Positions 6,646 through 58,765 of a stretch of DNA of 64,000 nt are shown piece after piece. How positions within the stretch are numbered: position 1 is the stretch's first letter; every line of letters begins with the position of its first letter. The notes under the pieces are model-generated. The model was not told where the DNA came from and ran no database searches. It saw nothing but the letters and a program-made list of their open reading frames with translations. The translations under genes were made by a program, and so were the position numbers. The DNA is taken from the IMG/VR virus record IMGVR_UViG_3300014202_000879, positions 117,889 to 181,888 of that record; one strand, 5' to 3'. Origin of the DNA: a virus.

Positions 6646-9153
6646 ATGTACATTACTTCGCTTGAGTTGATCGAGTACAGACGGTTCAAACTTCTTCCAT
6701 TCAAAAGGTTTAAAGCCAACTTCACCAAAAGCATGGTGGTTTTGGTTGGGACAAACGGCTGTGGTAAATCTTCGATCTTGGCCGAGTGTTCTCCTTGGCC
6801 AGCCGACAGGAGTTTCTACCGAAAAGGTGGCAGCAAAACCATCGAGATAGAAAACAAGGGCAACCGCTACAAGCTGATTTCTGACTTCAGCAGCGACAAA
6901 CCCAAGTATCTCTTTTACAAGAACGACGAAGGCAATTTGAATCAAGGTGGCACCATGACCACTTACAAGGAGCTGGTAAAGTCAGAGTTCGGCATCACGG
7001 ACGACATTCACGAGGTCTTGTCTGGCTCCAAGTCCTTCTACAGCATGACCGTGGCTGAGAAAAGAAAGTGGTTCACCAGGATGCCTGGTGTGGACTACGA
7101 GTATGCCATCCGGTACTTTAAGAAATTGAAAGAGACCACCAAGTCCACAGCCGATGTGCTCAAGAACATGTCTGCTCGCCTGATCAAGGAAAAGAGTTTG
7201 CTGCTGAGCAAAGAAGCTGTACAAGAAATCGAGTCAGAGTTGGAGCATCTTCGCTCTACGCTGCACAACTTCCTGCATGAGAAAAGCAGCCGTGTGGTCG
7301 ATAAGCCTTACGTGAATTTTGCTGAGATGACCAGAAACAGCAATGCGCTGCTGGACAAGCTCAAAGAGATCTACACCTCCATTCAGAAAAGGATCAATAT
7401 CGATGAAGCTATGACCAGCATCAACGAAGTAAGCAACGAAATCACTGTTGAGAGAAAACTCAAAGACGACTTAGTTGACAGGCTCATGGATGCCACTGGC
7501 AAGTACGAGAAACTCAACCAAGAGTACACCAGCATCAAGATGGTGGATCCCGAGTCAGAGCTGGGTAAGCTTGCACAGGAGCTGGAGCGCCAGAAAGCCC
7601 AGCTGAGTTACCCTGACTTCCTTGAGAAAAATGGCTTGGATCTAAACGACCCTTCGGCCATCAGGTCGTTTGTCTATGCACTCAAGAACTCAGAGTCACT
7701 CATCGTGGAGTTGCAGAACTTTGAGTTGACTGAGGAGCAGGTCTCTGGCAGCTACATCTTCCAGCTAAGTTCGTCTCTGAACGATCTTCGGGTGATGAGC
7801 AAGTATGTCCAGACCTCGATAGGCGGATTGGAGACCAAACTGGCACACCTAGAGAAACACCGGTTAAATCCAGATACCATCTGCCCTGCATGCAACCACA
7901 CATGGAAACCAGGTTACACGGATGACGACTACGAAGACGCAACCAAGCAGATAGAGAAAAAGAGACAAGAACAGAAAAATCTGGCCATCATGATCAGCAC
8001 CACCGAGACCAATCTGGAACAAGCACAAATCCAGATGTCTTTGTACACATCTTTGATGGCTTTGCCCAGTCACAATCCCAACACCACCAACTATGTAGGC
8101 ATCGTTAAAAGCCATCTGTTCAACAACCTGGGCGATCTACCTAGGACCTACAACAACTTCTTATCCGACGCGGCCCTGTGTGTCAATATGGCGGCCACTC
8201 GCAACCGTATACAGGAGATCGAGTCTGTCATCAGGGCCAAGAAAGACAACATCGATGCCGTGCGAAGCGAGTTGTCTGGGTTGATCGAATCTCTTGGCAT
8301 CAGGATCGAAGAAAGATCGACAGCCATACGAGATCTTTATGCTCAAAAACAAAAGCTGGAGTTTGGTGTGCGTCAGGAGAAAAAACTCCAGGAGATGATC
8401 GCCACCACCAACGCCTACTGTAACAGCATCGATGATCTCGTGCGCAAAGAAGGTAGGCACCAACTCAATGTGTACCTGAACAACTGCATCTACGATCTGA
8501 AGTCGAACATCGCTATCCGAGAGCAGAAGATAGGTGTAGCCCGTATGCAACAAGCTGTGGTGCAAAAACTCAGTGCTGAGATCGACAGCCTGAGTACCCA
8601 GTTGGTTGGTATGCAAGCTGCTTGTGAAACCTTATCGCCCACCAATGGTCTCATTGCAAAAGGTTTGCATAACTTCTTGCAGTTCTTTACCAGTGAGATG
8701 AACGAGATCGTTGCTGAGGTGGCTACCTATCCACTGGAGGTCGTCTGCAACGGTGCTACCGATGAGGACATGAACCTGGACTTCAAGATGGAAGTCATCA
8801 CCAACAACCAAGTCGATGACAGTTCTCCCGATACCTCCAAGACTTCGTCTGGTCAAAAGGACATCATCGGTTTGGCTTTCAATTTGGCCAGCATAAAAGC
8901 ATACGGGTTGGGTGACCATCCTTTGTTCATGGATGAGTTTGGTGTGTATATGGACCATACCCATAGAAACAAAGCTGTTCGGTACGCAGAGAAATTGATG
9001 ATCGGTGGAAACTTTCAACAGTGTTTCATGGTTTCTCACCACAGTTCAGCTTACAGCAACCTGGCCAACGCACAAGTTATTGTTATCCACAAAGACAACG
9101 TGGTTATGCCAAGTGATTTAAAGACCGATCTCGATGTGATCATGGAGCTTTGA
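6646..9153 (+). CDS. sbcC: SbcC/Rad50-like SMC ATPase (phiKZ gp165-like)
   Basis: Walker A GTNGCGKS, long coiled coil with CPAC zinc hook, signature SSGQ, Walker B LFMDE, H-loop VSHH. ATG 6646 follows AAGGA (track start 6604). Confidence 0.9.
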   Translation: MYITSLELIEYRRFKLLPFKRFKANFTKSMVVLVGTNGCGKSSILAECSPWPADRSFYRKGGSKTIEIENKGNRYKLISDFSSDKPKYLFYKNDEGNLNQGGTMTTYKELVKSEFGITDDIHEVLSGSKSFYSMTVAEKRKWFTRMPGVDYEYAIRYFKKLKETTKSTADVLKNMSARLIKEKSLLLSKEAVQEIESELEHLRSTLHNFLHEKSSRVVDKPYVNFAEMTRNSNALLDKLKEIYTSIQKRINIDEAMTSINEVSNEITVERKLKDDLVDRLMDATGKYEKLNQEYTSIKMVDPESELGKLAQELERQKAQLSYPDFLEKNGLDLNDPSAIRSFVYALKNSESLIVELQNFELTEEQVSGSYIFQLSSSLNDLRVMSKYVQTSIGGLETKLAHLEKHRLNPDTICPACNHTWKPGYTDDDYEDATKQIEKKRQEQKNLAIMISTTETNLEQAQIQMSLYTSLMALPSHNPNTTNYVGIVKSHLFNNLGDLPRTYNNFLSDAALCVNMAATRNRIQEIESVIRAKKDNIDAVRSELSGLIESLGIRIEERSTAIRDLYAQKQKLEFGVRQEKKLQEMIATTNAYCNSIDDLVRKEGRHQLNVYLNNCIYDLKSNIAIREQKIGVARMQQAVVQKLSAEIDSLSTQLVGMQAACETLSPTNGLIAKGLHNFLQFFTSEMNEIVAEVATYPLEVVCNGATDEDMNLDFKMEVITNNQVDDSSPDTSKTSSGQKDIIGLAFNLASIKAYGLGDHPLFMDEFGVYMDHTHRNKAVRYAEKLMIGGNFQQCFMVSHHSSAYSNLANAQVIVIHKDNVVMPSDLKTDLDVIMEL

Positions 9154-9200: not shown

Positions 9201-9816
9201 TTGCTAAGCTGGTGAGGTGTGCGGTCAGAGCCTGGACCTGCTGTACAAGCGTGGCGTTTTGCTGACGCAAGAACTCCATGGTGGCGATGGAATCTACACT
9301 GTTCAGACGTGTGGTTTCACGCTGTGCTGTATTTACAACATGTTCGTCGACAGGCACCAGCACAGGTTTGGAGCTAATGACCTCGTTGACCAAAGGCACA
9401 ATACCCACATGGTTGGTGACGACAGCAGCAATGTCGGCTTTGAGGGACGTCAAGTCTCTGCTAACAGGCAAAGCTGGCAGCGACACCACCAGAGAAACAC
9501 CATAGTAGGCCACACCACTGACATCAGGAAAGCCAGAGATGTACCTGGATGGAACATACACCCAGTGTCCACCATCGGTCTCCAGTCCCACGATGGGGTT
9601 ACCCTCTTGGAAGTCTTGATCGAACTCCAGATCAGGTAAACCTTTGGGCAGGTAGACCGTTTCTTTAGGAGACTCGCCGTTGGAGAAGTATTCGTCGATG
9701 GTTCGCACACTGCGGCACGTGTACGGTTGTCCTTCTTGAATGTCTGAATTGAAGGGTGCTGAGAGTTTGAAATAGCCCTTTGCACCTACGGTAGGCAAGA
9801 CGATGTTTTCATTCAT
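9196..9816 (-). CDS. conserved hypothetical (probable virion) protein
   Basis: 206-aa ORF; P.VG.KG.F.L..PF...YTCRSVR...YVPSRYI pattern recalled from phiKZ-like phages. Confidence 0.65.
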   Translation of the reverse strand: MNENIVLPTVGAKGYFKLSAPFNSDIQEGQPYTCRSVRTIDEYFSNGESPKETVYLPKGLPDLEFDQDFQEGNPIVGLETDGGHWVYVPSRYISGFPDVSGVAYYGVSLVVSLPALPVSRDLTSLKADIAAVVTNHVGIVPLVNEVISSKPVLVPVDEHVVNTAQRETTRLNSVDSIATMEFLRQQNATLVQQVQALTAHLTSLAT

Positions 9817-9861: not shown

Positions 9862-10113
9862 ATGATTGCTATGTTTTTTCTACAAATATTCAAGTTGTTT
9901 GTGCTGCTACTGAAAGATCTGATATTCGACCACCCTGATGAACACAACTTCAGGAGTTCCAAGTTCAATGCAAGGAAGTTTGCTGTGTTTGCTTTGGTGG
10001 TGTCGTTGATTGTGTTTGACGTGGCTGTTCTCTCCAAAGCTGTGGAGATGGCCAAAGAGACCACAGAATTGAAAGCCCAGTTGCTACAAAACTGTAAGGT
10101 GGTACCAAAGTAA
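9862..10113 (+). CDS. small membrane protein
   Basis: 83 aa with hydrophobic N-terminus, TM segment FAVFALVVSLIVFDVAVL and a coiled-coil tail. Confidence 0.6.
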   Translation: MIAMFFLQIFKLFVLLLKDLIFDHPDEHNFRSSKFNARKFAVFALVVSLIVFDVAVLSKAVEMAKETTELKAQLLQNCKVVPK

Positions 10114-17084: not shown

Positions 17085-17102
17085 ATATATACTTGAACTG
17101 AC
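17085..17102 (+). promoter_or_regulatory. putative early (vRNAP) promoter motif
   Basis: ATATATACTTGAACTGAC; one of seven intergenic or gene-edge copies. Confidence 0.65.
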
Positions 17103-23868: not shown

Positions 23869-26800
23869 TTACACCATGGTCCTTTTACTGGATCTGTTCA
23901 AATCGATGACAGGGCCAGACGTAGGGGGTGCGACTCTACTGCGAGGTGTAGCCAGTTTGGATGGTTTTTGTCCCGCGATGCTTTTGGCTTTTTCAGGATC
24001 AAAATGTTCAATGAACGCCACCATCGCACTGAGTAGTTTCTCATCTTGGGCCAGACTGGCACGTTGAACTTCCAGACTGGATTTAAGAGTGTCGTGAATA
24101 TCTGAGACAATCTTAGGTGGCTCAATAGCCGTGAGGCTTTGTTTGGATACAGGCATAAAGCCATCGCCTACCACAGATTTGCTCAGATCGTCTTGTAGCT
24201 TCTTCTCTTGTTCTTTAAGGATATCGCTGAGTGTAGGCACCTTCAGTCCAGGCTTCTGGATCACAGGAGGTGGCGCGATAGCCTTATTCAACACGGGTGA
24301 GTTTGCGATACTGGGTACGACAGGCAGCGGTTTGGTCGCCTGAGGCAACTTTGTATCGTAAGCCAAAGACCCATGGACTGTTACCTTCTGGTCCACATCG
24401 CGCATCAACTCACCAAGGGTCTTCCACCTATTCTGCTCTTTGTTGTAGAACAGGGGTTTGTTGTGTTTGGTGTCTATCACGCTGTCAGGTAGGATCTTAT
24501 CAATCGCAGTCGTGTATTTACCTTGCTTGATAGCTTGCAGATATACCCTGCTGCCACCAGCACCAAGCATATGCAACATGGCCTTAAGACCAGGGGTAAT
24601 GACCATACCCCTGAGTTCTTCATGTCTTTCATCCATGATCTGTCTTTGGTAGACCATGGCAAAAGCCAAGGAAGTCCTTGGGTCAAGCAAGTTGTAGTTT
24701 GCAGTCACACCGTAACCCGCCAACATGTCCCTGTATTTGGGGACACTCATCAGCCATTTGGCGGTCTCGGGTGTCATCTGGGTAAGACCTGTGGGTTTGG
24801 CTCCACCAGCGCCGATTGTATTTGGGTTGAGTGTGCTTTCCTTGTTGGACAGCCCAATCAGGAACGCCTCGTCGTCCTCAGACAACTGGTTGTCATTGGC
24901 AAACTTCTTGATCGTATCTACCACAGCTTTCTTATCCAGACTCAGTTTGGTCTGGGGCATGGCCACGGGTTGTCTTGCATAGGGGTTACCGTCTACACTG
25001 CCTTCGCTGCGTATCCCCATCTCGATCTCTTTGGCATGTTTCCTAGCCTCTGTATGGCCTGTCATGGTACCCAGTCCACCATCTTTGGCAGGTATGTGGT
25101 TGATACCTGGCACATAGTTGTTGCCAGCCATCATGTACTTCTGTGCGAGTATAGGGTTTCTCTCGCCTTTGTTGCCGACGTAGCTGTAGTTGGAGCCGAT
25201 GCCACCACCACCCTTACCGATACCAGAGCGGATCAGAGAAGTCAACAGATCCATGTTGTTACCAGAACCGATCAACTCACGAATACCGCGTGGTGTGTAC
25301 TTATAGATACCAGCGGGTTCGATATGCCAAGGCTCTTTTGCCACAGGCCGGGTCAGACCATACTTGCGCATGAGGCCTGACTCTTCTAACTTGGCTACAA
25401 TGCCTCGGTCGATATCCACAGCCAAACCCATCTCGTGCATGGAGTAACCTGGACGTGCGGCCCCGCCTTTGTTTCCTTCGGCCTTGGCTTTATCGTATTG
25501 AATTTTCTGCTGTGCTTCTGTCCTATGACCTTGGTTGATCTTCAGCTTGACACCATACAGCTGATAGTATTCCTTGGCCATGCCAAGAACCAAGTTTCTG
25601 AACTCAGGAAACAGTTTGTTGATCGCGTCTGGATGTGAGACCGTGACGTACTGCAGACCTTGCTCTGGGCTCATCAGCGATCCAGAAGCTTTGGGGATGG
25701 AACTTCTGGGTGCTGCGTTCAGACGCGCACTTTTGTCAGCAGAGAACGAGTCGGTGGGCTCGGACTCTACATCCGTCTGCTCTTCACCTTCGTACCCGTA
25801 TTTGACTCTGTATGCCTCTAGTCGGCTGGTGATGGCAGCAATCGTTTCAGCAGATTGTCGCATATCGGTTCTGACTTGTTGATCCGAGAACCGGTAGGGT
25901 GCCACACCTGGAGCACTCAACTGTGCTTTGGCATTGAACTCTCTGGCGTTTTTCATTTCTTTTTGCATGTCGTCCATCCGGCTGTTGCGGCTGTACGCGA
26001 TGGTCAGAGATCTTGAGATCAGGTATTCCAGCAAGTCCATGGCATGCTGGCGGTTATCGGGAAGACTTGGCTTGGCTGGGAATGGCGAAGCCTTGTGAGA
26101 GTAAGGTCCGTTGGGGAACATCACAGCGTCTTTGAACCGCAGGATACGTTCAGGCATCATAAGGTCGATGCGGTCTTCGTTCTCCAGATCAAAGCTCTTC
26201 ATCGCTGTGTAGAAGTTCAAGAAGAAGGGCTTGAACCTTCTGTGGAACCAAGCATGGAAGTCGTTGATCTCACGGGTAGAGGATTGATCCACACCCATCA
26301 GCGCCATCACTTCGGAAGCATTGATGTTGCTCGCCACCTGAAGACCCTTGGCGTCTTGCGCCAAATGTTTCTCCAGAATCAACTTCTCCAGAGATTTCAG
26401 ACGGTCGTGGTACTGCAAGTCGTTACCGAACCCAGAGAAACCGTACTGTGCAAACCTGAAGAGATGCCATTTTCTCTTGGATTCCTTGTAGTATTTGTTT
26501 CCGTAGTAAACCGCAGCACCTGCCCCAGCTACGAGAGCCATAGGAATAGTGGCTGGGCTGGTCAGGACAGCACCTGCCATTGACAAAGCACCCGCCCCTG
26601 CGCCCACCAACCAGCCCATGGGTCCACCTGTAAGCATGGAAGCCATAGCAATACCGCGAAGACCTGCGATGGTTGTTCTTTTTGTAGCGAACTTAGCCAA
26701 CGCAACAGCGCCTTGACCTAAGCTCTTTGCACCCTTGAGACCAAGCAGGCCCAGGATACCACCTAGAGCGCCGCCTATGGGTCCGCCAGCCAGTGTACCT

Positions 26801-41714: not shown

Positions 41715-42593
41715 TTAGATGACGTTACCGGCGAGATCCTCCACGCCGAACTTGTAGCCAGTAGGTGAGGTCATCACGTTTTGGTCTTCTTCGCCAGCGA
41801 TCCAGGCTGGGCGACGGCTTGGATCAGCATCCACAAACTGCATCTCGTCCAAGTAAGCTTGGGCGTACGCAATCGTAGCACGGTTGTAGGTAGAGAAGCC
41901 AGTCATCGGGATCGACAGATCCAGTTTACTGGACGCAACGGTTGGGTCACGCACGCCGTCGACATCGCCTTGGTCCATGGGCATGACGTTGGCGGTGATC
42001 CAGCACTTGTCCACCTTCAGGCCAGATGCATCGGTTTCGTAGGCCATGATGGTGGAGGTATACCATTCGGCACCCCAACCACCGGCTTCCTCGATAGCCT
42101 CACGGTAGCCTGGCAGCGTCATCGCCAGCGGCATCTTGGTTTCTGGATCGGCCATGCCGATATGCATCCACCAGCCAACAAGACTCTGAATAGGCCGGCC
42201 TTTGCGTTCATGGTAACCAAACACGGGTTCGGTACGCACCCGTTTCATGTCCGTCAGGGCCTGCAGTTTCTCGCCAGCGAAACCGATATCGACTTCATCG
42301 AACTCGGGCTTCAGGGCAGCATGGAAACCTTCAACCTTGGTAGGCAGCGTCTCGAAGAAGTTCTTGAACGCTTTGTAGAACTCTTCCTGGTTGTCGGTCA
42401 GGGAGATGATTTTGGGAGCAGCCAGCATCACCACGGTGAGTGGTTTCGGGATGTACAACTGGCTCGACAGCAACACACGCTCATCGGGTGCGTAGCCGAA
42501 CTGGCCGATGTCGGAGAGACTGACAGCACTGGCTTGTGGTGGTGCAAAACCAACGCCAGGCCTTTGAAAATTGGTAAGGAGTACGGAAGCCAT
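41715..42593 (-). CDS. tail tube protein (phiKZ gp30-like)
   Basis: GQFGYAPD...YIPKPL, ER.GRPIQ..V.WW...MADPETK motifs; downstream of the sheath. Confidence 0.8.
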   Translation of the reverse strand: MASVLLTNFQRPGVGFAPPQASAVSLSDIGQFGYAPDERVLLSSQLYIPKPLTVVMLAAPKIISLTDNQEEFYKAFKNFFETLPTKVEGFHAALKPEFDEVDIGFAGEKLQALTDMKRVRTEPVFGYHERKGRPIQSLVGWWMHIGMADPETKMPLAMTLPGYREAIEEAGGWGAEWYTSTIMAYETDASGLKVDKCWITANVMPMDQGDVDGVRDPTVASSKLDLSIPMTGFSTYNRATIAYAQAYLDEMQFVDADPSRRPAWIAGEEDQNVMTSPTGYKFGVEDLAGNVI

Positions 42594-50374: not shown

Positions 50375-50406
50375 CACCTACATGGGCCTCGCAGCCCATG
50401 TAGGTG
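50375..50406 (+). terminator. hairpin after the structural operon
   Basis: CACCTACATGGGC-CTCGCA-GCCCATGTAGGTG, 13-bp stem. Confidence 0.6.
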
Positions 50407-50432
50407 ATGGCTGCATGTATTTTATTTCATTG

Positions 50433-50450
50433 ATATATACTTGAATTGAC
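50433..50450 (+). promoter_or_regulatory. putative early (vRNAP) promoter motif
   Basis: ATATATACTTGAATTGAC. Confidence 0.7.
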
Positions 50451-50536
50451 ACACCTGCTAACAGTAGCTGGTTGTGACCGCTGCAGATCGCAGCAAGGGG
50501 TGAGCTTTACCCTGTATAAAGAGCAAGGAGATAATC
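50448..50536 (+). ncRNA. structured 5' leader RNA motif, copy A
   Basis: Three hairpins; invariant CTAACAGTAG; covaries with copies B and C. Confidence 0.7.
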
Positions 50537-50899
50537 ATGAGTTTCGCATATGTTATCGAGGGCGGGTTCCTGGCATGTTCCATCGACCAAACCACCGGGG
50601 TGTTCAAAGCCCCGGCAGGTGTGGATGTGGATGCATACGTCCGGTCGTTTGACCGGATCAAGCACATCCGCATCCCCCTGAAGGGCGAGGGGAAGTGGAC
50701 CCGGGTGGGCTCAGGGACAGCGGCCCTGAGCTACTGGGAGGCTGCCGCCAACCGTTCCCCTGACCAAGTGTCTCCTGAAAAGGATGACATCGAGTGGTCG
50801 GAGGACTGGGAGGGGTCGCTGGTCCAGGTGCGTTCCCAGCGCCAGCTCTATACCTGTCCATGGACAAGTGAGAGTTGGTGGTGGGAGACCGTCAGTTGA
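50537..50899 (+). CDS. hypothetical Trp-rich protein
   Basis: 120 aa with AAGGAG RBS; followed by a terminator. Confidence 0.75.
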   Translation: MSFAYVIEGGFLACSIDQTTGVFKAPAGVDVDAYVRSFDRIKHIRIPLKGEGKWTRVGSGTAALSYWEAAANRSPDQVSPEKDDIEWSEDWEGSLVQVRSQRQLYTCPWTSESWWWETVS

Positions 50900-50900
50900 C

Positions 50901-50934
50901 GGGGAGTGCGGGAACCTACCCGCCTTCTTTTTTT
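50901..50934 (+). terminator. intrinsic terminator
   Basis: GCGGG-AACCTA-CCCGC then CTTC-T7. Confidence 0.6.
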
Positions 50935-50951
50935 CTATCAAGATCACGATC

Positions 50952-50969
50952 ACATATACTTTAGCTGAC
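50952..50969 (+). promoter_or_regulatory. putative early (vRNAP) promoter motif
   Basis: ACATATACTTTAGCTGAC upstream of 51002. Confidence 0.6.
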
Positions 50970-51001
50970 ACCCCTACCCTTAACTTTTAGAAAAGATCCA
51001 A

Positions 51002-51331
51002 ATGTTCGAACAACCCAAAGCAACAGTTCCAAACAACCCTGTAGAGATCATGCTCAAGGTCGATTGTCTGCACAAGAACATCGAAGCCATTCGTGACGAA
51101 GTTTTTAAGGCGATGTCGCCCTACATGACTTTTATGTCTTTTGATTTGTCTGGGAAAAGGCAAATTGAGTTCAATGTAACTCTTCTGAACACAGCGTCTT
51201 TGGGCACCCGCGCCATGGAGCTTGTCGAGTTGTTTCGCCCGATGATCAGCCAAAGGCTCTCGTGCATAAGTTTCAACCTGGTCACCGAGACTGGCTTGCA
51301 CACGGACGTAACCAGCGTAAGTATCTTTTAA
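51002..51331 (+). CDS. hypothetical protein
   Basis: 109-aa ORF downstream of the promoter motif. Confidence 0.65.
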   Translation: MFEQPKATVPNNPVEIMLKVDCLHKNIEAIRDEVFKAMSPYMTFMSFDLSGKRQIEFNVTLLNTASLGTRAMELVELFRPMISQRLSCISFNLVTETGLHTDVTSVSIF

Positions 51332-51348
51332 CCAAATCTAGACCGACC

Positions 51349-51774
51349 ATGGATGTAAACAAACTCATGATCCAGCTGAACTACAGAATGCTTCCAGCGA
51401 ACACCCCGGTGGAAGTTTGCCTGACGCTCGATTGTCGTGGTGCAGATGGATCCATGATACATGACCGTTTGGTTCGTGAAACAGGAAAATACCTGTCGTT
51501 AAATGATAGAGGCAAACCCATCTGCAAAATCACAGCTTCCCTCAAGAACGTGGACAAGTCGATAGATGTGGTTGCACAAGTAAATGCTTTCCACAAGACA
51601 ATAGCCACAGAGCCATGGATAAAACAACATGGTGCGGGTCAAGCCAGAGGCATCGATTTTGTTATCCAGATACCAGAGGGCCGCAGCAAGTCGGCTACAG
51701 AACTGGTGGTTTCTGATGAAAAGTCACACAAGACAGGTACCGGCTTGTATCGATTCACAATCCTATATACCTAA
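51349..51774 (+). CDS. hypothetical protein
   Basis: ATG 51349 (MDVNKL...) follows the previous stop; track start 51262. Confidence 0.65.
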   Translation: MDVNKLMIQLNYRMLPANTPVEVCLTLDCRGADGSMIHDRLVRETGKYLSLNDRGKPICKITASLKNVDKSIDVVAQVNAFHKTIATEPWIKQHGAGQARGIDFVIQIPEGRSKSATELVVSDEKSHKTGTGLYRFTILYT

Positions 51775-51780
51775 ACTGAC
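51763..51780 (+). promoter_or_regulatory. putative early (vRNAP) promoter motif
   Basis: CTATATACCTAAACTGAC overlapping the upstream stop codon. Confidence 0.65.
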
Positions 51781-51865
51781 ACTCTAACTAACAGTAGTTG
51801 GGTTTGTCCGCTGCAGATCGCAGCAAAGGCCCGTGTTGCCTTTATAAAACACCAGGAGAGAAACA
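51778..51865 (+). ncRNA. structured 5' leader RNA motif, copy B
   Basis: Same three-hairpin architecture; third hairpin has a different sequence (AAAGGC/GCCTTT). Confidence 0.7.
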
Positions 51866-52519
51866 ATGGAAGTCGTTCAAACAGTTAGTGACCTCAAAGA
51901 ACTGTTGAAAAGCCTGAAGAAAGGCAAAAAATACGTTGAGTTTTTTCAGCTCAAAGACCATGTGGATTTCCACAAAGTCAAGAAAAACATCTTGGTCGTC
52001 CCGAACGGCCGGGTTGTCTTCACACCTGGCATAGATCGGGCATCGGTCTCAGCTGCCTACTCGGGCTGCTGGGTGTCGCGGATCAAAACGCCGGAAGGCA
52101 AGTCGGTACGGGTCACCATACTGGATTCCAGTTATTCTGGAAACTACTGGCTGTCGTTGAAACAAGCTCTTATCGTCAAGAGGGACAACCTCAAGATGAT
52201 CAACGGATGTCTTGATAGCGACGGAATTGATTCTGTCTTTTGTACCAACCACTGGTATACCAAAGACAGTAGGAGGCTGGCTACCGACGTAATGACGTTA
52301 CTGCCGAACGGCACCAACAAGTCCGAAAAAGTCTATCGGGTATCGACCTATAACAAAAGGTCTGTGATCGACGACTGGTTGGTGGACCAGGTTTTCAAAT
52401 ACAACCAGGACGTAATCGACATGATCGACATGTCGATCAGTATCCTTGACTTGGGCCCTATGAACTTCACCAGCCTGGAAGAGTGGGAAGCTGGTGCCCC
52501 TATCATCAACCTGAAGTAA
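51866..52519 (+). CDS. hypothetical protein
   Basis: 217 aa with AGGAG RBS. Confidence 0.75.
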   Translation: MEVVQTVSDLKELLKSLKKGKKYVEFFQLKDHVDFHKVKKNILVVPNGRVVFTPGIDRASVSAAYSGCWVSRIKTPEGKSVRVTILDSSYSGNYWLSLKQALIVKRDNLKMINGCLDSDGIDSVFCTNHWYTKDSRRLATDVMTLLPNGTNKSEKVYRVSTYNKRSVIDDWLVDQVFKYNQDVIDMIDMSISILDLGPMNFTSLEEWEAGAPIINLK

Positions 52520-52527
52520 GGAATCAC

Positions 52528-52752
52528 ATGTATGCTATCGTGATAAGGAACGGCAACCGTCCTTCCACACGCATTCGAAAAAGGATGCGACGTCTATCGA
52601 GGCGGCTCAAAACGGCTGTTTGTCTTATGAATCGGCACCAGCTGCGGATGTTCAATTCTTCGATACATATCGAAGACGATAAGGAAAGAATCGCTGCCTT
52701 AAGGCTGTCGGGGTGGCGAGAAGGTTGCTGTCGTGTGATGTACATCAGATAG
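52528..52752 (+). CDS. small Arg-rich basic protein
   Basis: AAGGAA RBS before ATG 52528; RIRKRMRRLSRRLK (track start 52483). Confidence 0.65.
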   Translation: MYAIVIRNGNRPSTRIRKRMRRLSRRLKTAVCLMNRHQLRMFNSSIHIEDDKERIAALRLSGWREGCCRVMYIR

Positions 52753-52771
52753 TGGCCACATAGTCGACATA

Positions 52772-52803
52772 AGGTACAGGGGATCCTAGGATCCCCTGTA
52801 CCT
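52772..52803. repeat. perfect 32-bp palindrome; probable terminator stem (T7 at 52821-52827)
   Basis: AGGTACAGGGGATCCT|AGGATCCCCTGTACCT. Confidence 0.85.
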
Positions 52804-52831
52804 ATAGTCATGTATGTATCTTTTTTTGTTC

Positions 52832-52849
52832 ACATATACTTCAATTGAC
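52832..52849 (+). promoter_or_regulatory. putative early (vRNAP) promoter motif
   Basis: ACATATACTTCAATTGAC. Confidence 0.7.
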
Positions 52850-52935
52850 ATACCCGCTAACAGTAGCTGGTTGTGTCGGTTGCAGGTCGCAACAAAGGGT
52901 GAGCTTTACCCTGTACAAAAAGCGAGGAGTTTCAC
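52847..52935 (+). ncRNA. structured 5' leader RNA motif, copy C
   Basis: Same architecture; GTTGC/GCAAC compensatory change in hairpin 2. Confidence 0.7.
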
Positions 52936-53271
52936 ATGACGATTTTCACCACCCCTACCCTCATTGGCGGTATCAGCAATGTGGCGCCATTCAGCACCAA
53001 CCCGGACGTGGACCGCTTGGTCCGTGAATTCGGCATGTTCTGGAAAAAGACCCCGCACCAGGGGGTCTGGCACATTGCGAAGAATGGCGCCCAGATCACC
53101 ATCGACCACCAAGACATGATTCGGGTGCACCAGTGCCCGACCGTCGCAGACTTCCGCAAGGGCTTCGAGAAGGACGTTTTGCGCACCGTCTTGGCAGTAC
53201 CTGTGGACTCGTTCTACAAGTACCCGGGACTCCAGGTCATCGAGCTTCTGAAGAAGCTGGGGCTGTGGTAA
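52936..53271 (+). CDS. hypothetical protein
   Basis: 111 aa with GAGGAG RBS and strong codon bias. Confidence 0.75.
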   Translation: MTIFTTPTLIGGISNVAPFSTNPDVDRLVREFGMFWKKTPHQGVWHIAKNGAQITIDHQDMIRVHQCPTVADFRKGFEKDVLRTVLAVPVDSFYKYPGLQVIELLKKLGLW

Positions 53272-53427
53272 GCACCATGGGCGCTGTGGATCTTAATCGA
53301 TTCATAGCACACACCTACCAAACAAGCCAAGTACATGGACCAACAATTGCACCAAGGCCATTTGTGCTGGCCCACGCTGTAAGAGTAGAGACTCCAATCT
53401 GGAGACCCTTCTGGGGTCTGTAGGTTG

Positions 53428-53468
53428 GAGTAGCAACAGGCGCCACCCTGTTGCTACTCTTTTTTTTT
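53428..53468 (+). terminator. intrinsic terminator
   Basis: GAGTAGCAACAGG-CGCCAC-CCTGTTGCTACTC then T9. Confidence 0.8.
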
Positions 53469-55597
53469 CACCGAGACATACGCATGGAGTCGTACAGCTG
53501 ATCGAGCATCTCGTCGTAGGATCTTGCTTTCTTGCTGCTGGCTGGGAGAGCCGCAAAAGCTTGCTTAATCTGTAACTCCAACCTACTGCGCACATACTTG
53601 TCGCGTTCGGTGCGCAGCATCGTAGCCAGTAACTCAAACTTCATCACAGCAGCGTCCTCTATCCTTTTCTTCATCAGTGTCATAGGGTCGTTGTCTATGA
53701 TGCTGGCAGCGCTGGATTTAAGAATACTGCTGTGGTGCAGGCCATAGAACTGTGTGTTCCTGGCTGCCGTAAGGAACCAGTATGTCAACAACCAAGCGAT
53801 CACCAAGTCGTCATGGGCGCCGCTTCTGTGGTTGACCTTGCCGTTTTTATCCCTGATCAGAGCCATGATCTGGCTACACAGCTTCTTGCTGCGCATGGTT
53901 CTGGCACCGTGACGCAGCGCTTCTCGCATGGTGGTGCTAAATAGCTCGCTTCGGCTGGTCACACCCATGGCCGATGTAGCAAAGCCAAAAGTCTTTTTGC
54001 TACCATAAGCAACCTCATCACTCACCGTGTCTCTATTTATCAGTTTGTACAGACTTTCTTTTTCTTTGTGGTCATTCGCCACAAAGTTGAATATCCGTTT
54101 AAATGGGTTTAGGTTCTTCATCAAGAACATGGTGATCAGTGATTCCAGGATGGTGGGACCTGTGCTTCTTCTCTCACCGATCAGGATGGTGTTAGGGTAC
54201 CGCATCATGAAATCAAAAAGAAACTGTATGTACGAAGCTATGGTTGTCTCGTTGATGTCCATGTCAAGCAACACCTCGCCTGAGTTGGAGTGTGTGCCAA
54301 CAAGACCAATGGAGTCACCACCAGACGCATCCGATGTATCCAAACCCAACACAATAATGTCGTTGCTGAACGTGGTGTTCATCATACTGGGTTCCACATA
54401 CCACCGCATCATGTAACCATAAGGCTCCATGATCTCTACTTTCAGAGGATCTTGCTGACTGTTCTCAACAACTTGTCTGTCTGATTTCTCAAGAGCGGTG
54501 TTGGCTTCGCCAAACTTCCATTTGTTCAAGAAGTCTTTTTCAGCATCAGCGCCTTCAGCAGCAGCGTCAGCCATCCATTCCTGGATCTGCTCATCACTGA
54601 TACCCAGTTGTCTGTGGTTGAATTCGGTATAGACACGGTAAGGTACGTTTTTCTCGTTGGTACGGCTGTTGGTTTTGACGACCTTGCGCAGGTCTTGCTC
54701 GTTCCTACAGTCATACATGGTTTCGCTAAAAGGGGCTGAGTTCTGAGCCATCCTGTAAACGTACAAACCTTCGTCCTCAGCCAAGTCACCCACTGTGGTG
54801 GACATGATGGTACCATAAGGTGTTCCATTTTCTTTGGCTATGGTTCTCACCATGTTACCGGCTGCCAACATAGCAGGTACGCTGATACCTACGTTAGGGA
54901 TGTAGCATGGCTCATCGATGAAGTTGTTTTCGGACGTATGACCACGACCTACCATCTGAGCTGCTTTGGCGGACTTCTGGGGCACGAAACCAGTGTAGGT
55001 GTTGTCCAGTAAGCTGATCTTGATTTGCTCGGTGTTAGCGATATCTCGATCGCCCCTTGTCTTGAGATAGAAAGGGAGCTCCGAGTCGATCTTTTTCAAA
55101 CGCTCCAAGTTCTTGGCTCGAAGCTGATCATCCTTGGTCAACAAGTTGATGAAAGACTTTCTTAGCCTGAGCTCAAGCAACCATACAGCCAGTGTGTCGA
55201 TACCGTAAGACTTACCGGTTTGGCGTGGCTGCACCAGCAGGTTGAACACATGGTTGAAATACAACCAGTACGTGGCCATGTTGGCCCGGTTCATGTTGAA
55301 GATAGCTGGCTTGGTAGGTGTACTGTTGGGTGTGCGGGAACACTCGCGTATGAAGTACCAGAAATTGATGCTGGCTTCATTGGACACAAGCAGAGCCATA
55401 TCTCGGCTTATATTGGGGTCAAATGGGTCCACACCAATCAGACGCTCATCGTGCAAAGCCAGTGGCCATCGGTTGTTCTGGATACCCATTTCTTTGAGCA
55501 AAGAACAAAATCTCAGAGCATTTTCATTTTTTGTGTCGAAGTCTGGGAAGGCGGTTGGGTATCTGTCCCAGTCTTCCTCGTATAAAATAAGTGCCAT
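53468..55597 (-). CDS. terL: terminase large subunit (phiKZ gp25-like)
   Basis: Walker A QPRQTGKS, Walker B FIDEP, nuclease acidic motifs GLDTSDASGGDS and HDDLVIAWLL. ATG 55597 (MALILYEEDW); track start 55708. Confidence 0.92.
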   Translation of the reverse strand: MALILYEEDWDRYPTAFPDFDTKNENALRFCSLLKEMGIQNNRWPLALHDERLIGVDPFDPNISRDMALLVSNEASINFWYFIRECSRTPNSTPTKPAIFNMNRANMATYWLYFNHVFNLLVQPRQTGKSYGIDTLAVWLLELRLRKSFINLLTKDDQLRAKNLERLKKIDSELPFYLKTRGDRDIANTEQIKISLLDNTYTGFVPQKSAKAAQMVGRGHTSENNFIDEPCYIPNVGISVPAMLAAGNMVRTIAKENGTPYGTIMSTTVGDLAEDEGLYVYRMAQNSAPFSETMYDCRNEQDLRKVVKTNSRTNEKNVPYRVYTEFNHRQLGISDEQIQEWMADAAAEGADAEKDFLNKWKFGEANTALEKSDRQVVENSQQDPLKVEIMEPYGYMMRWYVEPSMMNTTFSNDIIVLGLDTSDASGGDSIGLVGTHSNSGEVLLDMDINETTIASYIQFLFDFMMRYPNTILIGERRSTGPTILESLITMFLMKNLNPFKRIFNFVANDHKEKESLYKLINRDTVSDEVAYGSKKTFGFATSAMGVTSRSELFSTTMREALRHGARTMRSKKLCSQIMALIRDKNGKVNHRSGAHDDLVIAWLLTYWFLTAARNTQFYGLHHSSILKSSAASIIDNDPMTLMKKRIEDAAVMKFELLATMLRTERDKYVRSRLELQIKQAFAALPASSKKARSYDEMLDQLYDSMRMSR

Positions 55598-58747: not shown

Positions 58748-58765
58748 ACATATACCTTAACTGAC
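58748..58765 (+). promoter_or_regulatory. putative early (vRNAP) promoter motif
   Basis: ACATATACCTTAACTGAC upstream of phuZ. Confidence 0.65.

Follow-up and report, generated by a model that had tools for sequence, protein, structure and literature searches.

Early gene expression in phiKZ-like phages is understood at the promoter level only, and the published maps show short, unremarkable leaders. The early consensus of phage AR9 comprises an AT-rich element, six unspecified nucleotides (nt) and G+1, and in phiKZ and phiR1-37 the start is conserved 6 nt past the element (PMC5312081). The early leaders of phiKZ are typically 31–40 nt long, according to the sources on the phiKZ, 201phi2-1 and AR9 early promoters (PMC5312081, PMC8244752, PMC11512511). 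Here we analysed a 64,000-nt stretch of viral DNA (positions 117,889 to 181,888 of IMG/VR record IMGVR_UViG_3300014202_000879; this whole stretch is called the window below), in which three copies of a three-hairpin leader, A, B and C, each follow a predicted early promoter and precede an open reading frame (ORF). The source phage attaches this one conserved, covarying 90-nt fold to about half of its putative early promoters, before unrelated accessory genes. Judging from the sequences, what is new here is probably a promoter-leader cassette with a 5′ stabiliser-type hairpin, which matches no described RNA family.

Parts of this arrangement have likenesses elsewhere. The put RNA of phage HK022, as King 1996 and Banik-Maiti 1997 are said to have described it, is cis-acting and made of two promoter-proximal stem-loops a single unpaired base apart. 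In T4-type phages, PeSL units join a terminator stem-loop to an early promoter, a ribosome site and a start codon, and have been implicated in gene gain, loss and swapping (Arbiol 2010 PMC2839356; Comeau 2014 PMC4122927). Pairing of the 5′ terminus controls RNase E and RppH, as in the ompA and papA leaders (Emory 1992, Bouvet and Belasco 1992, Arnold 1998, as referenced in PMC3997798). In our literature search, no paper turned up that describes repeated structured leaders for early genes of the phiKZ type.

Organization and RNA Fold of the Leaders

In each of the three copies, all on the + strand, the parts follow the same order: the T-rich tract that closes the preceding terminator, GTA, ATATAC, six variable bases, TGAC and the leader. 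Hairpin 1 is long and imperfect (about 12 bp); it opens at the G of TGAC, with GACAY/GTGTC as its closing pairs, GCTA/TAGC as its inner stem and ACAG as its loop. After a single unpaired base comes hairpin 2, with a 5-bp stem and a 5–6-nt loop, and, beyond two or three A residues, the sequence-variable hairpin 3. Downstream lie an open A-rich linker, AGGAG and ATG; none of the predicted folds pairs the A-rich tract or AGGAG.

Leader A (50448–50536) is composed of hairpin 1 (50448–50478, loop ACAG), the spacer C50479, hairpin 2 (50480–50494) and hairpin 3 (50497–50513), followed by the A-rich linker, AGGAG (50526–50530) and ATG (50537), with a gap of 86 nt between TGAC and ATG. In leader B (51778–51865) hairpin 1 occupies 51778–51808, the spacer is C51809, and hairpins 2 and 3 lie at 51810–51824 and 51825–51843; AGGAG (51854–51858) and ATG (51866) follow at a gap of 85 nt. 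Leader C (52847–52935) has hairpin 1 at 52847–52877, G52878 as the spacer, hairpin 2 at 52879–52893, hairpin 3 at 52896–52912, AGGAG at 52925–52929 and ATG at 52936, the gap being again 86 nt. A covariance model (R1) was built from 10 copies (alignment A2). Leader C is its top match (104.8 bits), and leaders A and B score 100.1 and 78.6 bits; hairpin 3 of leader B is of the AAAGGC/GCCTTT type, which is kept in its ortholog on contig L182. A preliminary description of the window had placed these three copies correctly, together with AGGAG, the one unpaired nucleotide and a gap of 85–86 nt between motif and ATG, and had also read the stem variants correctly (GCTA/TAGC vs. ACTA/TAGT, GCTGC/GCAGC vs. 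GTTGC/GCAAC, and AGGGT/ACCCT vs. AAAGGC/GCCTTT). The 10-mer CTAACAGTAG on its own is not rarer than chance within the window; significance is attributed to the whole module and its covariation.

Covariation was tested on alignment A6 (17 distinct sequences, 21 pairs) with five measures, including two that are rarely false-positive, against 500 shuffles and with slid-partner controls. Standard pairs form in 90.9% of the cells across the 17 copies vs. 27–65% with slid partners, compensatory changes are found in 14 of the 21 pairs (43 cells), and each of the five measures has an observed value that none of the 500 shuffles attains. In 17/17 copies hairpin 2 is paired, with seven stems in all (GCTGC, GTTGC, GCTTC, GCCAC, GTCAC, GTCGT and GCTAC). 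In the ortholog of leader A on contig L174 the inner stem of hairpin 1 (CTAACCA/TGGTTAG) and the stem of hairpin 2 (GTCGT/ACGAC) are wholly replaced, whereas the loops ACAG and AGATC and the entire hairpin 3 are unchanged. When the 17 sequences were folded one by one, most of them gave the three hairpins. Because the alignments had been fitted to the model, and because copies have traded segments, the cells do not count as independent events; despite this non-independence, chance is implausible given the number of distinct stem variants.

Our results confirm real selection on RNA structure ahead of unrelated ORFs, as the preliminary description had claimed: the covariation extends over 17 copies, and blastp among 14 of the ORFs behind leaders gave no pair at E<0.01. 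On the sense strand, G-U cells outnumber A-C cells (23 vs. 9, binomial p=0.01; 16 vs. 9, p=0.11, without the outermost pair), and this excess speaks for RNA from the + strand rather than for a cruciform or a DNA structure of the template strand. The most conserved stretch is the hairpin 1 loop AAYAGU, with 1.70 bits per column vs. 1.02 for the apical stem. The loop of hairpin 2 occurs as AGATC, AGGTC, AGTT, AGAAC, AAGCAC or AAGTAC; the AGATC form, present in 8/17 copies, places a GATC (Dam-type) site within the loop (e.g., 50486–50489 and 51816–51819).

The loop ACAG of hairpin 1 could also base-pair with the CUGU on the 3′ shoulder of hairpin 3 (50460–50464 with 50511–50514 in copy A). This complementarity (A6 columns 18–22 with 85–88) holds in 84% of cells vs. 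11–50% with slid partners, and the copy at 41 kb of the genome alters both sides of the pairing (AAUAG with CUAUU). As covariation of this pseudoknot-type pairing is not above that of the shuffles, a tertiary contact of this loop with the shoulder of hairpin 3 is possible but unproven.

Promoter and Predicted Transcript Start

When 14 upstream regions were aligned, the promoter resolved into GTA, a T-rich spacer, TATATAC, N6 and TGAC, that is, the same parts as in the 30 phiKZ sites that we extracted (GTAT.., an A/T-rich tract, TATATTAC, N6, then G). Promoter A (50412–50450, + strand), assigned by the alignment of 14 motifs and by homology to phiKZ/AR9, has GTA at 50417–50419, a T-rich spacer, ATATAC at 50435–50440, N6 and TGAC at 50447–50450. 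The corresponding parts of promoter B (51742–51780) are GTA 51747–51749, ATATAC 51765–51770 and TGAC 51777–51780 (G 51778), and those of promoter C (52811–52849) are GTAT 52816–52819, ATATAC 52834–52839 and TGAC 52846–52849 (G 52847), both on the + strand. The motif is a homologue of the phiKZ/AR9 early promoter for the virion RNA polymerase. The likeness to phiKZ, 201phi2-1 and AR9 covers GTA, the A/T-rich spacer, TATAT(T)AC, the 6–7 nt and the G, as well as the + strand location and the kind of genes served (small hypothetical and polymerase-subunit genes). The difference lies downstream, since early leaders of phiKZ are short and without excess structure (mean z = −0.1 for the 30 sites), and a repeated structured leader is undescribed for these promoters.

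The phiKZ G+1 corresponds to the G of TGAC when the sites are superimposed by their TATAT, and to the T when the final AC is used instead. From this we infer that transcription begins at the T or the G of TGAC, which for promoter A would be T50447 or G50448. As the start would be T or G under either alignment, hairpin 1 would include base 1 or 2 of the RNA. All 17 copies retain the first pair, in which the G of TGAC faces the C belonging to the distal GTC, and the 3′ strand GTC is conserved though it lies 30 nt from the promoter. The T preceding the G is pairable with G or A in 13/17 copies, and in contig L184 the variant TGAT is matched by GTCA via a U-G pair.

The promoter pattern ATAT[AG]C-N6-TGAC occurs 23 times in the 207-kb contig from which the window is taken, every time on the + strand, and about half of these class promoters are without the leader. 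A hairpin beginning ≤3 nt from the G was found at 18/23 class promoters, leader-less ones included, vs. 49.5% of control 40-mers (Fisher p=0.006); several of them are unrelated hairpins closing GAC with GTC. One promoter of the class, at genome position 24545, serves a 716-aa RNA-polymerase beta-like ORF (24545–26764, outside the window), as expected for an early promoter of this family; it is followed by a 5′ hairpin other than hairpin 1 (GACCACTTG..CAAGTGTC) and by a leader of 56 nt. Within the window, the leader-less ATATAC-N6-TGAC promoter at 50954–50969 (+ strand) is followed by an unstructured untranslated region of about 35 nt and the ORFs 51002–51331 and 51349–51774, and further leader-less copies of the motif are found at 58750–58765 and 17087–17102 (both + strand). 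The promoter at 58750 has its own 5′ hairpin, GACAT..ATGTC, and is conserved on contig L176 (45% terL identity; position 7247, minus strand). Sigma-70-like sites were not enriched (3 found vs. 2.7 expected).

The claim of the preliminary description that these are early promoters of a jumbo phage also stands, on the homology to phiKZ/AR9 promoters, phiKZ-type matches of a virion protein and split polymerase genes. The source contig is 207,092 bp long with 50% GC, linear according to IMG/VR and 71% complete according to CheckV. The 885-aa virion protein adjoining the leaders matches 288 phiKZ-type phage records, all at ≤34% identity, with Burkholderia phage FLC9 and Ralstonia phages RP12 and RSL2 at the top. 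The contig also encodes RNA-polymerase beta-like and beta-prime-like pieces, the two beta-prime-like fragments being below the Pfam cut-off. Based on the virion-protein matches and the split RNA-polymerase pieces, the source is a divergent, uncultured phiKZ-like (Chimalliviridae-type) jumbo phage. The chimallin Pfam model gave no match in the 71%-complete contig, which is uninformative, as the controls gave none either.

Distribution and Mosaic Structure

The three copies first described understate the family. On the 207-kb contig, model R1 gave 11 strong matches, all on the + strand, namely 10 full leaders at genome positions 32240, 41815, 46901, 89933, 90860, 168335 (A), 169665 (B), 170734 (C), 197222 and 197983, and one two-hairpin copy at 101469. 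Weaker variants were matched at 89366 and 95052 (+ strand), and a further variant at about 193974 (+ strand) was spotted by eye. The distance from the G to the start codon is 87–92 nt in the 10 full leaders. Contigs of relatives supplied 6 more leaders, from two related phages, and 3/6 of these precede homologues or orthologues of ORF A, ORF B and the B116-like ORF. A remnant on contig L184 (L184:263–353), with hairpins 2 and 3 intact, hairpin 1 degenerate and no promoter core, overlaps the end of the upstream ORF and precedes an ORF B homologue; this is either a relic in decay or an indication that the position of hairpins 2 and 3 away from the 5′ end does not stop them from working.

The leader family is narrow and comprises the source phage and its two relatives. 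Model R1 found nothing significant in FLC9, RSL2, LucasX (Xanthomonas), phiKZ, HK022, RaK2 and 121Q (best 19 bits, in RaK2/121Q), and the promoter pattern is absent from FLC9, RSL2 and LucasX. Megablast and blastn searches of GenBank phages with the A-B-C island and one module gave no match. In IMG/VR, no match was obtained with two hairpin 3 patterns or with a protein-based search for the locus, and a longer pattern of promoter and hairpin 1 gave 1 match there and 25 in metagenomes, none of which bears the leader by the model. A degenerate promoter pattern gave 115 single matches in IMG/VR, which were judged to be chance. The preliminary description had recognised no known riboswitch or ribozyme in the module, and in a permissive Rfam 15 scan of 49000–54500 matches were at chance level only; the sole Rfam match touching any leader was Mu-gpT-DE, with 16 bits vs. 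a gathering score of 49. The leader is a candidate for a new RNA family, with a covariance model, 17 members and a compact 5′ element as a possible mRNA stabiliser.

Comparison of the copies shows that the module is mosaic, with hairpin segments exchanged between copies, a feature missed in the preliminary description. Identities over the three segments (hairpin 1, hairpin 2, hairpin 3 tail) are incongruent: 52/38/83% for the 89k vs. 46k copies and 76/100/59% for copies A vs. B. A near-identical stretch of about 35 nt (hairpin 3 and tail) is common to three copies with differing other hairpins, the 46k copy differing by one base, and between copy C and the 32k copy identity runs 16 nt into two otherwise unrelated ORFs. 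The module behaves as a recombining cassette. It resembles T4-type PeSL in its repeated composite units, unrelated small accessory genes, variable islands, mosaic structure and indels or gene replacement between relatives. In PeSL, however, the stem-loop is a terminator upstream of the promoter, while here there is a transcribed 90-nt three-hairpin covarying leader, which is absent from PeSL; moreover, the PeSL promoter is sigma-70-like and used by host polymerase in a T4-like genome, whereas the promoter here is of the phiKZ virion-polymerase type in a phiKZ-like genome. The cassette logic of T4 PeSL, in which portable units of terminator, promoter and ribosome site shuffle ORFans, extends in this way to a phage using its own polymerase.

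Possible Function of the Leader

A 5′ stabiliser fits the anatomy best, as hairpin 1 lies at the inferred first base and its G1-C pair is kept 17/17. We hold with moderate confidence that early mRNAs carry the module as a cis-acting 5′ leader, the terminal hairpin of which shields their 5′ end, and that the module spreads by recombination like T4 PeSL. The virion RNA polymerase would start at the T or G of TGAC, and hairpin 1 would then hold the first nucleotide. A paired 5′ end is the classical means of keeping out the pyrophosphohydrolase RppH and 5′-end-dependent RNase E; here it would prolong the survival of the earliest phage messages, for which such protection in cis would count most, as they are made ahead of any anti-degradosome function of the phage. 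phiKZ encodes a degradosome inhibitor, Dip. Hairpins 2 and 3 and the open A-rich tract would complete a standard portable expression unit, and the conserved promoter-leader of about 130 bp could supply the recombination homology by which early accessory genes move and are swapped, as with PeSL. The likeness to the ompA/papA stabilisers would consist in a hairpin at or within 1–2 bases of the predicted 5′ end, with an invariant 5′-most pair here, and an open ribosome-binding region downstream. The known stabilisers differ in being single-gene, with no conserved loop, whereas this leader is multi-copy, has two extra conserved hairpins and a conserved hairpin 1 loop, and has a start predicted by alignment.

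Several points weigh against a protective role. The loop AAYAGU is the top-conserved stretch, though a stabiliser hairpin needs no particular loop, and this hints at sequence-specific recognition. One hairpin suffices for a stabiliser, which leaves hairpins 2 and 3 unexplained, and L184:263–353 retains these two without promoter or hairpin 1. phiKZ itself uses short, unstructured early leaders. The transcript start at TGAC, furthermore, is predicted from promoter alignment, and the RNase E/RppH logic presumes a suitable RNase set in the host. Other roles were considered and rejected: hairpin 1 lacks the length and regularity of an RNase III site, the hairpins are not followed by the U tract of an attenuator, and there is no conserved ORF that could encode a leader peptide.

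A recognition function, alone or added to that of a stabiliser, is a serious rival. It is possible, if less probable, that a phage protein (virion-delivered or early) or a host protein binds hairpins 1 and 2, the outcome being selective translation, handling or export from the early infection compartment, or timed shut-off as by T4 RegA/RegB. This would account for loops being kept while stems change (1.70 vs. 1.02 bits per column in hairpin 1), most clearly in the pair of leader A and its L174 ortholog, where ACAG and AGATC persist with both stems swapped, and for the constant leader length of 87–92 nt, the one-base spacer between hairpins 1 and 2, and the survival of hairpins 2 and 3 without a promoter in L184. 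The partner protein is, however, a postulate, none being predictable from sequence; the hairpin 2 loop varies, and loops could be conserved because the copies share a recent ancestor and have undergone gene conversion. The leader is also missing from about half of the early promoters, among them those of the polymerase-subunit and tubulin-like genes. More specifically, and only tentatively, the leader might be a "self" tag of transcripts made by the injected virion polymerase: a phage protein would read the AAYAGU loop and the stacked hairpin 2 and so route, translate or later silence early messages, for example by handing mRNAs made in the early infection compartment to ribosomes. Such a tag, if real, would give nucleus-forming jumbo phages a post-transcriptional layer that has yet to be described in them. 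Under the stabiliser and recognition readings alike, the findings point to selection on the early messages themselves, for stability, recognition or both, at a stage when the phage has solely what was injected.

The remaining explanations are improbable to differing degrees. The preliminary description had offered four functions; the 5′ stabiliser stood as the best anatomical fit and the protein-binding tag is a possible one, but the put-like antiterminator and the translational enhancer fared poorly. In the first of these two, nascent hairpins 1 and 2 would bind the virion polymerase in cis and confer resistance to pausing and termination, like HK022 putL/putR. The resemblance is real, as two promoter-proximal stem-loops stand one unpaired base apart in 15/17 copies and the polymerase is multisubunit and related to cellular enzymes. 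Yet the units contain no internal terminator and end in a strong terminator followed by a new promoter, so read-through gains nothing; the promoter is used without the leader at about half its sites, the leader has a third hairpin and would serve another polymerase, and neither sequence nor structure matches, model R1 finding nothing in the whole HK022 genome at E≤1. We consider such a function improbable. Just as improbable, in our view, is a translation-level device, which would either switch as a sensor or, as an insulator or enhancer, leave the ribosome site accessible whichever ORF comes next. The A-rich tract and AGGAG are indeed unpaired in all folds and the hairpins self-contained, but accessibility of the ribosome site and start codon is 0.48 in natural vs. 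0.46 in shuffled leaders (Wilcoxon p=0.32), and we found neither another partner with which the ribosome site could pair nor a conserved junction or pocket, nor any match to an Rfam riboswitch. Finally, the element could act as DNA, whether as a downstream promoter element, an N4-like hairpin or cruciform for the virion polymerase, or an attC-like recombination site. Its fusion to the promoter at a fixed distance and the recombination of the module are compatible with this, and N4 virion polymerase uses DNA hairpins (PMC4496689). On the template strand, however, the 23 sense-strand G-U cells would become C-A mismatches, the hairpins come after the predicted start rather than before it as in N4, the stems vary freely, unlike an operator, and hairpin-less promoters precede presumably important genes (RNA-polymerase beta-like and tubulin-like phuZ), which makes a DNA-level role very unlikely.

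Neighbouring Genes, Terminators and Related Contigs

The units consist of one to three genes without an internal terminator, with a hairpin and T run at the end and a fresh promoter directly after. Directly upstream of promoter A, and after the gene of a 566-aa virion protein, lies a terminator-like hairpin with a T-rich tract (50375–50429, + strand; 13-bp stem at 50375–50406), and the terminator scan of this region gave an overlapping hairpin and T tract at 50397–50417. Unit A ends at an intrinsic terminator at 50908–50936 (GCGGG..CCCGC, then a T run), and unit B at 52773–52827, where a 30-nt perfect palindrome (52773–52802) is followed by a T7 run (52821–52827). At the end of unit C a strong terminator (53427–53470, 14-bp stem and T run) faces the 3′ end of the large terminase gene, terL; all of these terminators are on the + strand. 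In relatives with 46% terL identity (L177:1066–4958, L178 and L179), terL abuts or faces a gp26-like virion gene and the A-B-C island is absent; since terL abuts the gp26-like gene there, the island is a lineage-specific insertion between two conserved late genes.

ORF A (50537–50899, + strand, 120 aa) has no Pfam or PHROG family, and its L174 ortholog stands behind the orthologous leader. ORF B (51866–52519, + strand, 217 aa) is likewise without a family, and its homologues in relatives, with 51% and 46% identity, are behind leaders. ORF C (52936–53271, + strand, 111 aa) also has no family, and PHROG gave no family match among the window ORFs scanned. The sole leader ORF with a Pfam match among the families scanned is located at 90 kb of the genome and encodes an STIV B116-like protein. 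Very short ORFs follow two of the full leaders, at genome positions 41907–42011 (34 aa, hydrophobic) and 90948–91037 (29 aa); these transcripts either encode micro-proteins or have a main product that is not protein.

Close relatives are known solely from short metagenomic contigs. The virion protein on L174 is 92% identical to that of the window. Contigs L180 and L182 share one ENA sample, another run yielded the identical contig L183, and L184 is from a third source. The contig of the terL relative at 78% identity is too short, and no leader was found on the contigs of terL relatives at 45–46% identity or on those of B116-like homologues at about 60% identity. Lineage-specific repeated leaders may be common in the phiKZ-like family. 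A distant chimallin-encoding phage contig, L181 (201 kb, 40% GC), has its own unrelated 56-nt leader, which is repeated with 80% identity between copies at 9452–9507 and 9956–10011, ahead of two adjacent genes with promoters of the ATACTT..TGR type.

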